A stretch of 64,000 bases of DNA from a virus (lineage: Duplodnaviria; Caudoviricetes). The stretch's first letter is position 1; each line of letters begins with the position of its first letter. This document shows positions 33,710 through 64,000 of this stretch, in pieces. The stretch is from IMG/VR virus record IMGVR_UViG_3300031994_000067, positions 1-64,000 of that record, one strand, 5' to 3'. The translations under genes were made by a program, and so were the position numbers. The notes below the pieces were generated by a model that saw nothing but the letters and a program-made list of their open reading frames with translations, had not been told where the DNA came from and ran no database searches.

Positions 33710-35975
33710 TCAGACAAGCATTTTGTCTGGATTGATTTCGTTTAAATGCATTGATGAATCGTGAAAAGATTTCATCCCGAGATTAACGAAGTTCGAACCG
33801 ATTTTTGCTGCAGTAAGACCAACATTTGTAACTCCGAGTCTATATGGTAAATCTCCGAAACATACGTTGCAGATTTTCTCCGATGTACAGAACATCGGAC
33901 TGCGCATATGAACGTGTTTTCCAACGTATGATTTGATCGAAGACGCGGTAAGTTTTACAAGCTTTTTACCTTCCACAATATATCGGTCAATATAATCTTT
34001 GTAATTGCTATCGTCTATTAATAATTCGAGTGTCATTAACGAATGGCAGTCACTGCCTTTTGGACCAAGAACAATGTTTTGGTATTCGGCATAGAACCTC
34101 TTTACTGCATAACCCCCTCATATGTTCCCATAGGTTCGCTACTCCTATAGCGTTCTCTTATGAACTGCTTCGTATCACTACGAAGTTCAGACTATATCAT
34201 CACCTACTAATAGGTGCACCCCGTTTCGCTCCGCTTGGAGCTACTCACTTTCGTGATAGTCGTTGAACCTTATTCGAATATCTCAACACCTTCATCAATA
34301 TATGCGCTGTATTGTACAATAGATTCTTGAGTATCAACTTTCTTCTTCCTTTTATTGTACAACTCAGATGCCGCCCGCTTATTTAATCCCTGTTTCATGA
34401 TAATGTCAATTATTTCTTCCTTATCTTTTTCAGCAACAATCGCTCTATCAATCGAGTTGAAATATGAAGAATAATCCGGACGTTTCTTGTGTTTCGGAAG
34501 TTTCAGAATTTTCTCAAAGTTGTAATCTTGTGACACTTGAATCCATTCCCTACCATCAAGAATGTGCTTAACAGTCGATTTCGAAACGCTAGTTATCTTA
34601 GATATTTCAGAATATGAGTATGATGCTTCTTCGAGCAGACTACACACTTTTCGAATCGTATCTGCCGAGTATTTATTACTCGGATTTTCTTCACCGTCTT
34701 GAATCCTACACAACCCATTATCATGAGCATGTGTGTGTTCTCTTGAGCTGTGCACCATTCAAGATTTCCAATACGGTTGTCGGTTTTGATACAATTCAGA
34801 TGGTTCACTTGGGGAAGATTCTCGGGGTTCGGTATGAATGCTTTCGCAACTAATCTATGTATAGACTTGCAGTATTTCTTACCTTTGTGATGCATTCCTA
34901 CTCTGAGATAACCACGAGTCTCTACGGGTTTTATGGACTCACCAGTTTTGGAATTTCGAACATCGCCTTCGTCCGAAACTTCATAATTGGTCTCTTCACC
35001 ATCTATAATGATGCGCCTATATTCGGCCATAATAATCACCTCAATTAGATGTATTATGACTTGTGTAATGAAGATGTTTGATTCTAATCTTGGCTGCTGA
35101 TTGTCTCTATTAGAGAGTTTCCAGCAATTAGAGGTGTTTTCTTTATCGATCGCTCAATAAAGCCGCACGGGATCTCATACGGCAGTTCCGACTGATTTTG
35201 GATATTGACCAAGTATGACACCATTAGTAAACTCCGGGATGTTCTCCTTACGAAGACCTTCCGAAAAAGAGTTTGGTGCAATTTTATACTTGCCAGTTAC
35301 TGGGTCGAATACTGGTCCTCGAATTATGTTATTGCATTTATAATTATTATCGAAATTTCCACGTGCTCCCGAATCAAACAATTCCATTCCGGGATCACCT
35401 TTAAGCTCTTTCTTTGCTTCCTCTATCAATTCGCTTTCAATTTTAACCGCTTCAATAGCATCGCCTTCAGCGAGTTTATCAGCTTTCTCCTTCAATAACT
35501 TTTCCCGTTTAGCGATAACTCCCTTGAGAGGCACTATGGTTTTTTCTGTAAATGAACCACATACCATGGAATGAAGTGAAAGTATCCATTGAAGACGATT
35601 TTGATATTCAGCGTAATCGTTCAAATCGATTATATCGTTCTTCAATCCGTCGTTAATGTTATTCTCGAATTTTCCGAGAGATTTTTTGTCGAGTGGTGTA
35701 TTCCAGTAATCAGTGACATTTTCAAGCAAGTTTTCCACGATGAATTTATTGAAGATGAATAAGCCGACATTGGTGCGTTTGATATCTTCTCTATTGTGAC
35801 ATTCACCCTTTTTGAGAGAGAATTCATCCGACCAATTAAATCTGGGTTTTTCAATCTTCTTGGTTTCGGGATTATAATGTTGAACGAGATTCTGTTCGAT
35901 GAAATTACGATCTATATCGGTTTGTTTAAGCGAAATCAGAAAAGCTCTATCTTCTTGTGAAAGCATTTTCATCAC
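33710..35975 (-). CDS. RNA polymerase beta'-like C-terminal subunit, spliced: join(35975..35179, 34118..33710), 401 aa; likely virion RNAP
   Basis: Exon 1 has SGARG and EGL. Splicing GCC GT|A GGG GGT TAT restores the bridge-helix motif PKSVGTAVGGYAVKRF, followed by SDC and RSPMFC...C..C...MKSFH. Total 1206 nt is in frame. Confidence 0.88.
34119..35178 (-). mobile_element. Group I intron (IA2), 1060 nt, in the RNAP beta' gene
   Basis: P1 GCCGU/GCGGC with U.G; P AATTGCTGGAAA; Q AATCAGCAGCC; R GTTCAACGACTA; P7.1/P7.2 hairpins; S GATATAGTCT; ends GGAACATATG (omega-G at 34119). Confidence 0.92.
34270..35030 (-). pseudogene. Intron-encoded HNH homing endonuclease (NUMOD4/HNH_3-type), frameshifted
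   Basis: HRLVAKAF...VNHLNCIKTDN...NLEWCT in one frame continues as HAHDNGL...HTH in another; the shift lies in an (AC)n run at about 34730-34738. Confidence 0.8.
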
Positions 35976-59643: not shown

Positions 59644-59883
59644 TCAATATGCGCGACGATGTGTGTGACGACGTGTGCGATTTGCGTAGCGATGTGCGCA
59701 GTATGCAACCACGCACTCCACCAGCACTCTCTGAGAGAGCGCGTTCGCCACATCTTCAAATACGACTTCTCCGCTTTTGTCGAGACCGACAACGACCGGT
59801 CGGCCATCGACACCGTATGATATGTCAGCGACAATTTCGTTGTCGCCGACAACGACGAGATATTCGTCTTCAAACTTCATCAT
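59644..59883 (-). CDS. Small early hypothetical protein
   Basis: ATG at 59883 follows the repeated promoter/leader cassette. Confidence 0.65.
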   Translation of the reverse strand: MMKFEDEYLVVVGDNEIVADISYGVDGRPVVVGLDKSGEVVFEDVANALSQRVLVECVVAYCAHRYANRTRRHTHRRAY

Positions 59884-59885
59884 TC

Positions 59886-59975
59886 TTATCTCCGTCCTTT
59901 CAAAACGGATCGTAGGTTTCTTCATATCAGTAGTGAGTAATCCTACTTAACTCTTCTACGCGGATATAATATATA
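59886..59975 (-). repeat. 90-bp direct repeat, copy 1 (early promoter plus structured leader plus RBS)
   Basis: Identical to 60436-60525. Confidence 0.95.
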
Positions 59976-60117: not shown

Positions 60118-60432
60118 TTAGTTGAATTTAACCCACCAGTCTGTCATTTCCACATCACCGGTCTTGGTATCGACACGGTACGTGAAAATGACCTTGTTGT
60201 ACTCGACGAACGGAGAACCATTGGGATAGCAGTCTGTTCCCTTACAGGTCACTCCGCTTGCGACCAACGTGGCAGTTCCGACGCCGGGCTTGCCGTAATT
60301 GAGGCTGACGCTAATCACGGCATATGACATATCATCACAGCTGCTGCCGTAATGTATGTTTCCGTTCGTCGCGTCGAGTTCGATTTGCGCAGCAATAGTT
60401 TTCTTTGCGCGCTTAACGTTGAAGTGTGTCAT
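60118..60432 (-). CDS. Small early hypothetical protein
   Basis: ATG at 60432 follows the repeated cassette. Confidence 0.7.
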   Translation of the reverse strand: MTHFNVKRAKKTIAAQIELDATNGNIHYGSSCDDMSYAVISVSLNYGKPGVGTATLVASGVTCKGTDCYPNGSPFVEYNKVIFTYRVDTKTGDVEMTDWWVKFN

Positions 60433-60435
60433 TAG

Positions 60436-60525
60436 TTATCTCCGTCCTTTCAAAACGGATCGTAGGTTTCTTCATATCAGTAGTGAGTAATCCTACTTAA
60501 CTCTTCTACGCGGATATAATATATA
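60436..60525 (-). repeat. 90-bp direct repeat, copy 2
   Basis: Identical to 59886-59975. Confidence 0.95.
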
Positions 60526-60542: not shown

Positions 60543-60575
60543 TAGCGGACTGAATCAATTTGATTCAGTCCGCTA
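60543..60575. terminator. Terminator hairpin after the RNAP beta gene
   Basis: TAGCGGACTGAATCAA/TTGATTCAGTCCGCTA palindromic stem. Confidence 0.65.
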
Positions 60576-60584
60576 AATGCCGTT

Positions 60585-63500
60585 TTAATAGAGATCGTCT
60601 TTAGGTTTGAAGCTTGGATTATCTTTTTGATACATCTCAAGCCACCTACGTTTTAATTCGACGATAACTTTATTTCCGTACATTGTGCAAAAGATTGATG
60701 GGGTCATACGTGCTAACACACCCGCTGGTGCGAAAGTTGACGAAATTTCTTCATCAGGTCTATCTATTGAATATGGTTCTTGTCCTTTTGCGATGAGCTC
60801 CAGTAATCTTCGCATAGGTTCGCTAATCCTATGCCGTTCTATTATGAACTGCTACATGTCTCCATGTAAGCTGAGACTATATCATCATCTCATAGAGATG
60901 TCTCCCATTTCACTCCGCTTGGAGCTACGCCTTTCGGCTAGTCGTTGAACGTTCTAAAAAATCTCGATTCCTTCATCAATATAGACAGTATTTTGTACAA
61001 TAGAAAGATTGGTGTCAACTATTTTCTTCCTGGTTCTATACAATTTTTTCGCAACTTTTTTAGGAACACCTTTTTCAATAAGAGTTTTAACAATCTTCTT
61101 CTTAGACGTTCCACAAATAATTGCTCTGTCTATAGAGTTGAAATAAGTTCTATAAACCACAAACGAATTCGCAAATTTCAAATTCAAACCTTCAGTAAGA
61201 TATTTATAAACACTTTTTGACTTAATTTTTGATATGGTATCATTAGATACACCGGTTAAATCAGAAATTTCGCTCCGCGTATAATCACCAGTTTCTAACA
61301 ATTCGATCACTTTCTTTATATTGGCGATCTTATATTTGTTATTATGGTGATCTTCACCTTTAGGGAGAGATATGAGATTATTATCATATGCGTGCTGAAT
61401 ATTCTCAGATTTTGTACACCATTCAAGATTTTCTAATCGGTTATCTGTTTTAATACCATTTTTATGATTAACATCAGGAAAATTTTCGGGATTTGGTACA
61501 AACGCTTCCATAATCAATCTGTGAACAAATTTATGCACAGTTTTACGTTTGATATACATACTGTATCTCAAATACCCATGTTTACTTAAAAACGGTTTAA
61601 GAAAATGACCAGTTTTTAAGTTTTGTAATCTCCCATCTCTGTATATCATATAATTCGTGAGTTTGGAATTGACGTATACAACTTTTCGATCGTCACTATC
61701 CACAAATATCACTTCTCTCATCAAAAAATTAAGAATGTGTTTAGTGGTTAATAGAAATGAGTCTTTAGTTTCGCTGCGGATTGTCTCTATTCTCACTCTT
61801 TTTACCATACCTGAGTAGTTAATTCAGCCGCGTAATACATTACTGCTTACGTTTGGTAAATGAGACCTAACGAGATGTTCCCGCAATTAAGGAGATTCTA
61901 ATATGTAGTCACCTACATATAGGGTCAGTATAGGCCGTTTACATACTTCCAAATATCTTCGCATAGGTTCGCTAATCCTATGCCGTTCTCTTATGAACTG
62001 CTCTACGTCTCCGCAGAAGTTGAGACTATATCATCATCCATATAGGATGTCCCCCATTTCGCTCCGCTTGGAGCTACTCGCTTTCGCGATAGTCGTTGAA
62101 CGTTCCTTCTATAAGAAGGCTTCGCTGCTGATTATCTTTATCTTACCGATTTTTACACTTGGTACGATAAGCATATCAAGACTTCCCAGCAATTAAAGGA
62201 ATTTTATCAATGTTGATTTCTCAACAAAGCCACTATTTGTGTTAATGGCTGTAAAATGGACCAATTTATCCAATAACTTCACATAGGTTCGCTAATCCTA
62301 TGCCGCTACTTAGCTGCTGCATGTCACCATGCAGATGAGACTATATCTTCACCTCAGAGAGGTGTCTCCCATTTCGCTCCGCTTGGAGCTACTCGCTTTC
62401 GCGATAGTCGTTGAACCTTCCTATTACAGGCTTGGCTGCTGATTGTCTCATAATGAGAGTTTCCAGCAATTAGAGAGATTCATATCCGTGATCACTCACG
62501 GATCGGGCAATAAATTTACCTACATCAAGATAGTCCTTGTATTTGATGAAAAATTTAATCAGAACGCCAAGATGAACTTTAACACCCATGATCTTTCCAT
62601 CTTCTCCACCGTCAACAACCACAGCCTTTTCACTGAATTCCAGACCGTTGACATCTCCACCACGTCTCTTAATCTCAGCTTCCTGTGCTCTAAGTCTGGC
62701 AAAATAAGCATCGACGATCTTCTTCAAAGACGGAGAAAGTTCTTTAGGTTCGACGGTTGTGTATATTCGTATATCTTCAATCACTCCAGCATACTTGGAT
62801 TTAACCGGAATTTTACCCATAAGCGTGATTTCTTCTTTCAACTCTTTACCAATGTTAGCCAACATCTTGTTGAATGAAGCGTCCTGAGATGAATTATCGT
62901 ATATAATCAGTGGGTCATTTACATTTACCTGCTGACCTATTTTGACGATGTAATCAACATTCGAGTTCATTCCAACTATAGCTTCTGCTTCCATACATAC
63001 TTCAGTTCCTAACTTCTTCGAAAGTTTATCCGTAACGAAATTACCATCTTCGAAGCTGGTATATGTAGCCATGCAAGCCACTTTAGTAAGAGTTCCTATG
63101 TTGAATCGTACACCTTCAGCCGGAGAACTCGAAAAGTATCTTTCGTTATATGCAAGAACAGAATTTTTCTTAAAATAAGTTCCCGGTTTAAGTGCGTCTG
63201 TATTCATCTTACTGGGCAGGTAAAACCCACCTGCTCCATTTTTGACGACTTTTGAATTAGCGTTAATAACTTGACGTTTCAATTTTCCTTGGAGATTCTT
63301 ATATTCGATTACAATAACCCCGGTCTTATCGTCTCGTGAAATTACCTTACCATCATCTTTCGCTACTATACAGAAATCAGTAGAAAGATGATAAGGTAAA
63401 ACTTTTTCAGCACCATTTGATATTAGTACCGGAGACGCATGTTCTACGGGGATGATGTGCTTGCTTTGTTTGACAGCCATTGAGACACGAATCTGATCAT

Positions 63501-63752
63501 CCCGATTCAATCCTGGGGTAAGCATTTCAGCCATACTAAAAATATTAGAATCATCCAAATCTCGTTCATCCGAAGGTTTTACATACCCACGACCATTGAC
63601 CACGTTCGGGTTTATAGTCAAACTTTTGGTGATGCCGACATTAGCATCTGGAGATTGCGGAATTGCTATAACTCCAACCATGCTCTTGTCGTAACATCTA
63701 CGTTTCAATGTGTAGGCCTCTTTCAAATTTGTCCCGCTGGGTGTTGTGTTCA
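60585..63752 (-). CDS. RNA polymerase beta-like subunit (C-terminal part, 5' end outside the window), spliced from exons ~63752..62518, 62270..62245, 61949..61934 and 60800..60585
   Basis: SPDANVGI, QSKH and FEDG motifs; splicing gives YLDVG|DKLVHFTAM|KYVNG|ELIAKGQEP...GVLARMTPS, which aligns without gaps to bacterial [25 protein letters not shown]...GVPSRMN. Confidence 0.85.
60801..61933 (-). mobile_element. Group I intron (IA2) with an HNH endonuclease, ~1133 nt
   Basis: P2 ATATGTAG-GTGA-CTACATAT; P AATTGCGGG; Q AATCCGCAG; R GTTCAACGACTA; S GATATAGTCT; ends CGAAGATTACTG; 5' boundary uncertain by 1 nt or more. Confidence 0.88.
60954..61721 (-). CDS. Intron-encoded HNH homing endonuclease (intact)
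   Basis: HRLIMEAF...VNHKNGIKTDN...NLEWCT..ENIQH plus a C-terminal HTH. The ORF-track start at 61808 lies inside the ribozyme core, so the ATG at 61721 is preferred. Confidence 0.85.
   Translation of the reverse strand: MREVIFVDSDDRKVVYVNSKLTNYMIYRDGRLQNLKTGHFLKPFLSKHGYLRYSMYIKRKTVHKFVHRLIMEAFVPNPENFPDVNHKNGIKTDNRLENLEWCTKSENIQHAYDNNLISLPKGEDHHNNKYKIANIKKVIELLETGDYTRSEISDLTGVSNDTISKIKSKSVYKYLTEGLNLKFANSFVVYRTYFNSIDRAIICGTSKKKIVKTLIEKGVPKKVAKKLYRTRKKIVDTNLSIVQNTVYIDEGIEIF
61950..62244 (-). mobile_element. Group I intron (IA2), ORF-less, 295 nt
   Basis: P1 AGCCAU/GUGGCU with U.G; P2 TGTTGA-GAAA-TCAACA; P, Q, R and S present; ends CGAAGATATTTG. Confidence 0.88.
62271..62517 (-). mobile_element. 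Group I intron (IA2), ORF-less, 247 nt
   Basis: P1 GGU/GCC; 6-bp P10 (GATAAA with TTTATT); P, Q, R and S present; P9 CTGCATG-GTGA-CATGCAG as recalled for the T4 td intron; restores the GDK motif. Confidence 0.92.
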
Positions 63753-64000
63753 CATAGGTTCGCTAATCCTATATCGCTCTTTTAAGAGCTGCTGTGAGTC
63801 CCCCCACAGACCAGACTATATCTTCACCTCTATGAGGTGTTCCCTGTTTCGCTCCGCTTGGAGCTACTCACTTTCGTGATAGTCGTTGAACCTTCCTTCT
63901 AATATAGAAGGCTTGGCTGCTGATTGTCTCTATTCTACCGATTGTTACACTTTGGTACGGTAGACCTAACGAGAGTTTCCAGCAATTAAGGGAATTTTTG
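63753..64000 (-). mobile_element. Group I intron (IA2), 3' part; 5' end beyond the window
   Basis: P AATTGCTGGAAA, Q AATCAGCAGCC, R, P7.1/P7.2, S and P9-P9.2 all present; exact 3' splice site uncertain (63733-63753). Confidence 0.88.

Follow-up and report, generated by a model that had tools for sequence, protein, structure and literature searches.

The 42-nt stretch that encodes the two catalytic-loop lysines of a virion RNA polymerase (RNAP) beta-like subunit is, as sequence comparison confirms, cut by three predicted group I introns into two micro-exons of 26 and 16 nt. The stretch lies on the minus strand of the window, i.e. the whole DNA analysed, which comprises bases 1-64000 of a 79,081-bp IMG/VR virus contig rated ~32% complete by CheckV. 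We suggest that this part of the minus strand carries the 3' portion of the subunit gene of a jumbo phage related to AR9 and that the introns in it are selfish elements; to this explanation as a whole, including the selfish-intron account, we assign a probability of roughly 0.85. The features are as follows, in window coordinates and in the direction of transcription.

63742..64000, minus strand: 3' part of intron I1, which is 292 nt long and spans 64033-63742 of the parent contig; placed by RF00028 (100.2 bits at 63792-64043, minus strand, on the whole contig) and by relatives
62518..63741, minus strand: exon A, with 408 codons of the beta-like subunit; 90% nucleotide identity to contig L030
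62271..62517, minus strand: intron I2, 247 nt, without ORF; RF00028 101.2 bits at 62317-62527, minus strand
62245..62270, minus strand: micro-exon B, 26 nt: codons for DKLVHFTA and the first two bases of a Met codon
61950..62244, minus strand: intron I3, 295 nt, without ORF; RF00028 96.4 bits at 62001-62254, minus strand
61934..61949, minus strand: micro-exon C, 16 nt: third base of that Met codon and codons for KYVNG
60801..61933, minus strand: intron I4, 1133 nt, with an endonuclease ORF in the P6 loop
60954..61808, minus strand: HNH endonuclease ORF, 855 nt; longest frame 284 aa, true start uncertain
60585..60800, minus strand: exon D, 71 codons plus stop, the C-terminus of the subunit
60544..60574, minus strand: 13-bp hairpin, 10 nt past the stop codon, read from the sequence

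The hairpin is probably the transcript end. It is retained with two compensatory pair changes in the intron-less contig L030 described below, and it was not called by a scan for consensus terminators. Further downstream, two small ORFs (59644-59925 and 60118-60470, minus strand) share nearly the same start/leader of ~40 nt encoding MKKPTIRFERTEI, which may be a repeated leader or a regulatory element.

Gene identity and the spliced frame

In tblastn searches exon A matched the beta subunits of Staphylococcus SA1, Yersinia phiR1-37 and Listeria LPJP1 with E values of 1e-55 to 1e-64, matches to the virion RNAP beta of SA1, phiR1-37, AR9 and PBS1 gave E values of 1e-46 to 1e-62, and exon D matched the beta subunits of AR9, PBS1 and Staphylococcus jumbo phages; among annotated proteins, the best relatives are virion RNAP beta subunits from jumbo phages that are AR9/PBS1-like or infect Staphylococcus. 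When six intron-less relatives were combined in a profile, it retrieved bacterial RNAP beta chains from PDB (E 2e-11), and Pfam alone reported no domain in the exons.

The signature of the catalytic loop, GDK followed by seven residues and K, appears only once exons A, B and C are joined. In the profile alignment the corresponding GDK-i-a-y-f-t-a-l-K of the relatives runs gap-free with the beta motif of bacteria and plastids, in agreement with the sequence-only reading that had led to this analysis and that had aligned the spliced peptide without gaps to the bacterial GDK...K motif. On this alignment the two lysines are the counterparts of the bacterial beta pair, and each lies, as had also been proposed, on a micro-exon of its own, one on exon B and the other on exon C. 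In E. coli beta the pair is K1065 and K1073. Here, as in all phage relatives, aromatic plus small residues stand where the cellular motif has Arg-His.

The exon upstream of I1 (parent contig 64034-70834, minus strand) is open over 2,267 codons, and its resemblance to RNAP beta is confined to the final ~270. In relatives, whose proteins measure 1,444-1,866 aa, the part in front contains Pfam domains of the M23 peptidase, acetyltransferase, Nudix and transglutaminase-like types. On the opposite strand of the parent contig lies a 1,200-codon ORF (71739-75338, plus strand) with a match, over 72753-73349, to residues 415-615 of beta in SA1 and LPJP1; it may encode the N-terminal half of a split beta or, alternatively, the beta of a second polymerase.

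Joined by script, exons A, B, C and D give a predicted spliced sequence of 1,482 nt. A protein search with exon D found closer relatives, among them P0001, which is encoded on the 1,970-nt Logan contig L030 and to the C-terminus of which exon D is 99% identical. The joined exons align with L030:28-1509 over their whole length without a gap; identity is 90.3% in nucleotides and 97.0% in protein, and the codon differences comprise 117 synonymous and 15 non-synonymous changes. Exon B has 24 of its 26 nt as in L030 and encodes an identical peptide; exon C has 11 of 16 nt as in L030, with the mismatches clustered beside the I4 site, and differs in one residue. Together, these peptide matches and the 117:15 codon changes exclude chance as an explanation of the spliced frame. 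The micro-exons of 26 and 16 nt and the spliced peptide first read from the sequence are exact and gap-free with L030, and the further claim that four splicing events, counting that of the upstream intron, would be needed for one mRNA is in line with the collinearity of the four exons with intron-less L030 and with the prediction of I1 upstream.

The spliced frame is likewise gap-free against the beta subunits of SA1, phiR1-37 and LPJP1 and against the last AR9 exon, each of which has exactly 14 residues between the flanks. The intron-less P0001-P0008 and L014-L016 have the same 14 residues or near variants: the motif of L030 is GDKLVHFTAMKYVNSE, P0002, P0003 and P0004 have this motif with Ala instead of Ser, and P0005, P0006 and P0008 have near variants of it. 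In about ten other intron-less relatives the sequence is GDKLVHFTAMKYVN-x-E or a near variant. In the segment of exon C, L030 reads MKYVNS, and P0005 and P0023 read VNGE. The homologues do match DKLVHFTAMKYVN, the outcome on which the sequence-only reading had made its spliced frame depend. Searching IMG/VR with a degenerate DNA pattern for the 14-residue peptide yielded no allele free of introns, one being obtained later by the protein search, and locus scans of IMG/VR and of metagenomes gave relatives at 40-44% identity only.

Boundaries and ribozyme structure of the introns

The positions originally proposed for the three introns (62517-62271, 62244-61950 and 61933-60801) all hold by Rfam, P1 and end bases. 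The gathering score of RF00028 is 50 bits; the 3' core of I4 scores 42.8 bits (60852-61011, minus strand), which is under the gathering score because the 855-nt ORF splits the intron, and with the ORF removed the I4 core aligns with I1-I3 at 68-75% identity. Rfam matches to a plastid 3'UTR and to mir-891 were set aside as chance matches to hairpins.

I1-I4 are paralogues, belong to the phage IA type of group I introns and have P7.1/P7.2. Identity between the copies is 68-78%, and their RNAalifold consensus contains P2-P6, P7.1, P7.2, P8 and P9 and comprises 65 pairs, with compensatory double changes in 23. All four introns share the P7 strands GACUA and UAGUC without any change, and the guide sequence differs in each intron and matches its own exon in P1 folds. 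Judged by covariation and guide sequences, the four introns are maintained ribozymes and not decaying repeats or assembly duplicates. A megablast search against phage records matched 106 nt of the I4 core, at 82% identity, to intron-like DNA in phiNIT1 and other Bacillus phages; besides this match the region had no near relative in these records.

At the 5' splice site of I2, small folds place U62518 opposite G in a 5-bp P1 (GGU/AA with UUGCC), the last base is G62271, and the guide sequence forms a 6-bp P10 with the first six bases of exon B, GAUAAA. In I3, U62245 is opposite G in a P1 of 8 bp (6 bp on the exon side; -8.6 kcal/mol) and the last base is G61950; G61949 was rejected as the last base because a stop codon would then be reached. 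In I1 the 5' splice site follows U64034, which is paired with G. I4 ends in G60801 and has its 5' splice site after C61934, which is opposite A rather than being a U opposite G, in a weak P1 that has, apart from this C-A mismatch, two G-C pairs and a single C-G pair (-0.6 kcal/mol). A P10 was looked for in I3 and I4, and none was found. In short, I1, I2 and I3 have the U-G pair at the 5' splice site and I4 does not, and I2, I3 and I4 end in G, with I1 being the exception by homology.

The I4 junction was set by the relatives as Gly, Ser or Ala followed by Glu. Joining C61933 with G60800 would give Gly-Gln and joining U61932 with A60799 would give Gly-Leu, and both candidates were rejected as all intron-less relatives have Glu or Asp; none of the alternative U-G splice sites for I4 yields the conserved frame. 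An AGUAUG/UAUACU helix was likewise rejected as the P1 of I4, as it puts the G of the wobble pair on the exon side. Intron-less L030 reads TCT at the I4 5' splice site (window 61927-61937), so that a U would be available there. Separate ORFs ending in ...GYESL or starting with MRRLL..., considered as split genes, are read-through into intron sequence.

For the 3' end of I1, the intron-less P0003 and P0004 read TDKG and then directly PSGTNL, which makes A63742 the last base of the intron; the nearest in-frame G (63751) would insert Asn-Thr-Thr. The tail with its final A is also present in the 90%-identical contig L030, and because L030 keeps the same tail this A is not a read error. The I1-related intron in L031 ends in G. 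Given the weak non-canonical P1 of I4 and the apparent terminal A of I1, the efficiency of full four-fold splicing is uncertain.

The product of the ORF in I4 matches Pfam HNH_3 (PF13392) at residues 93-136 with 45.7 bits against a cut-off of 24.8, and NUMOD4 and HTH_7 weakly. It has no significant similarity to the g190 endonuclease of AR9, and the intron of L033 carries an ORF whose C-terminus resembles it. Elsewhere in the window, a fifth group I intron-like element (~34040-35190, minus strand; RF00028 31 bits, below the cut-off) sits between two ORFs that resemble parts of an RNAP beta'-like gene, and holds a paralogue of the I4 HNH protein that is split in two overlapping frames and apparently frameshifted.

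Intron insertions in the 42-nt segment among relatives

With the relatives counted, there are six insertion positions within 43 nt.

Site 0: this phage, I2
Site 3, after the Asp codon: L032 and L033
Site 15: L031, with an intron 92% identical to I1 of this phage
Site 16: L009 and others of a sister clade at ~42% identity, with an intron of 443-456 nt or ~1,250 nt
Site 26: this phage, I3
Site 42: this phage, I4

Since introns occupy three further positions (3, 15 and 16) in relatives, the 42-nt segment appears to be a homing hot spot. The occupied sites in relatives stand beside intron-free alleles with identical flanking protein. In the sister clade the intron is present in about half of the contigs and absent from the other half, and the peptide downstream of site 16 is identical in L014 and in the carriers of the L009 type. 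The close similarity of the site-15 intron of L031 to I1, which here lies ~1.2 kb upstream, indicates that introns moved between sites. Moreover, exon nucleotides near the I4 site and near the L009 site diverge more than elsewhere with the protein kept, and this raised divergence is what homing co-conversion would leave.

At its gathering threshold Rfam found nothing in the sister loci, and at a relaxed threshold the L009 insertion scored 26 bits. A further group I match in the sister clade (L017:1196-1536, 36.8 bits) lies far upstream of the GDK segment, so that phages of this clade carry several introns near or in the gene. No relatives with the same three introns as this phage were found.

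Probable selfish nature of the introns, rival readings and known systems

We suggest that each ribozyme would fold alone, bind its upstream exon via P1 and excise itself, presumably by guanosine-initiated two-step transesterification, and that the four excisions would give a translatable mRNA. The elements within the micro-exons are separate, comprising bases 1-6 of exon B (I2 P10), bases 21-26 of exon B (I3 P1) and bases 14-16 of exon C (I4 P1); because they do not overlap, no order of splicing seems to be forced. The introns themselves would be selfish homing elements: co-infecting relatives with an intron-less allele would have it nicked by the HNH protein of I4, and I2 and I3, which lack an ORF and lie no more than 68 nt from where I4 is inserted, may hitch-hike by being co-converted with I4. 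Conservation of its DNA, together with the lethality of an imprecise loss, would make the motif a hot spot.

Alternatively, the cassette may go beyond tolerated parasites, either because partial splicing or joint skipping of the micro-exons (with loss of 14 residues and both lysines) times or limits active polymerase, or because I4 and I1 are working introns with non-canonical sites that are helped by neighbouring ribozymes or phage factors. We regard this as unlikely. Quite improbable in our estimate is the proposal that the tri-intron cassette is regulatory, with ordered, slow or alternative splicing setting the amount or timing of the polymerase or making a variant subunit. Exon skipping with phage group I introns has been published for Twort orf142 and SIOphi (PMC11878797), skipping both micro-exons would remove 42 nt in frame together with both lysines, the near-identical cores of adjoining introns could mispair, and the weak P1 of I4 could be rate-limiting. 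However, skipping B or C singly would shift the frame, the 6-bp P10 of I2 is specific to exon B, and non-overlapping elements in the micro-exons impose no order. Moreover, the near relatives L030, P0003 and P0004 do without these introns, so the gene needs no such control, and occupancy varies among relatives as expected of selfish elements. Selfish accumulation is a simpler reading than a regulatory role.

A disabled gene, in which one or more introns (e.g. I4 or I1) no longer splice and the micro-exons are relics, would fit with the weak, non-canonical P1 of I4, with the apparent A at the end of I1 and with the origin of the contig as a metagenomic fragment of unknown viability. We consider it very unlikely given that every exon is open and in frame, that the excess of synonymous over non-synonymous differences to L030 includes the micro-exons, that the helices of all four cores are kept by compensatory changes and that the A-ending tail of I1 is kept in L030, which argues for function or at least tolerance. 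The least probable reading, in which repeated introns in a metagenome contig led to a chimeric assembly and the tandem array exists in no single genome, hardly fits with copies too divergent at 68-78% identity for an assembler to collapse or swap, with guide sequences that each fit their own exon and with micro-exons that restore the conserved frame exactly.

Three ribozymes in 42 coding bases are probably among the densest packings of self-splicing introns in a phage gene. The locus would be a natural system for asking what spacing between group I ribozymes still permits folding, how introns get from one site to another nearby, and how the active-site codons of polymerases become targets of homing endonucleases when jumbo phages compete. 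Annotation of such genes must include a search for exons of 16 to 26 bases, as otherwise the polymerase gene is called broken.

The sequence-only reading had called this architecture very unusual for a phage, which is overstated given the five introns and the deduced exons of 78 and 11 nt in AR9 g189 and the published small exons between phage introns (PMC11878797). AR9 g189 (KU878088.1), the gene for the virion RNAP beta, is annotated as a join of six pieces; by Rfam it contains five group I introns, one with an HNH gene, and our own reading of its sequence gives 78 nt for exon 2 and 11 nt for exon 3 (record 152162-152172). At all three junctions around these exons the intron begins after a U and has G as its last base, and splicing there gives a frame that aligns with SA1 without gaps. 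AR9 g189 is homologous to the gene described here (35-40% protein identity) and likewise has several group I introns close together, and its 11-nt exon 3 stands between an ORF-less intron and the HNH intron. The AR9 introns, however, lie ~400 codons upstream (the SA1 946-1111 region) and the GDK...K segment of AR9 is uninterrupted; three introns fall within 42 nt here versus 89 nt in AR9, there are two consecutive micro-exons here, and one 5' splice site here is without a U-G pair, unlike the AR9 junctions that were read. Splitting of this gene by several close group I introns is thus already documented in AR9, and the present case is a new and very dense example of it at a new place, the GDK...K loop.

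Several group I introns in one gene are also known from other phages. According to PMC11878797, multi-intron genes with small exons include the phiNIT1 ribonucleotide reductase and SIOphi genes, Bastille-like phages have a small exon between two introns together with exon skipping, and exon skipping had been reported earlier for Twort orf142 (Landthaler & Shub 1999, cited therein). The Twort, phiNIT1 and SIOphi cases resemble the present one in having several IA-type group I introns in one essential gene with a small exon between two of them, and differ in that they concern other genes in other phage families and in that splicing is experimental there and deduced from sequence here.

A further related system is PhiPA3 gp210, a virion RNAP subunit gene in which the HNH endonuclease of an intron nicks the intron-less allele of a competitor and confers a competitive advantage (PMC11620839). 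PhiPA3 gp210 differs in having a single intron, in encoding a different subunit with the intron by conserved aspartates, and in belonging to a nucleus-forming Pseudomonas phage, and the endonuclease of I4 is a prediction. Both have an HNH endonuclease in a group I intron beside catalytic residues in the virion RNAP gene of a jumbo phage, and the PhiPA3 case shows that an endonuclease in such a gene can also harm a competitor (PMC11620839).
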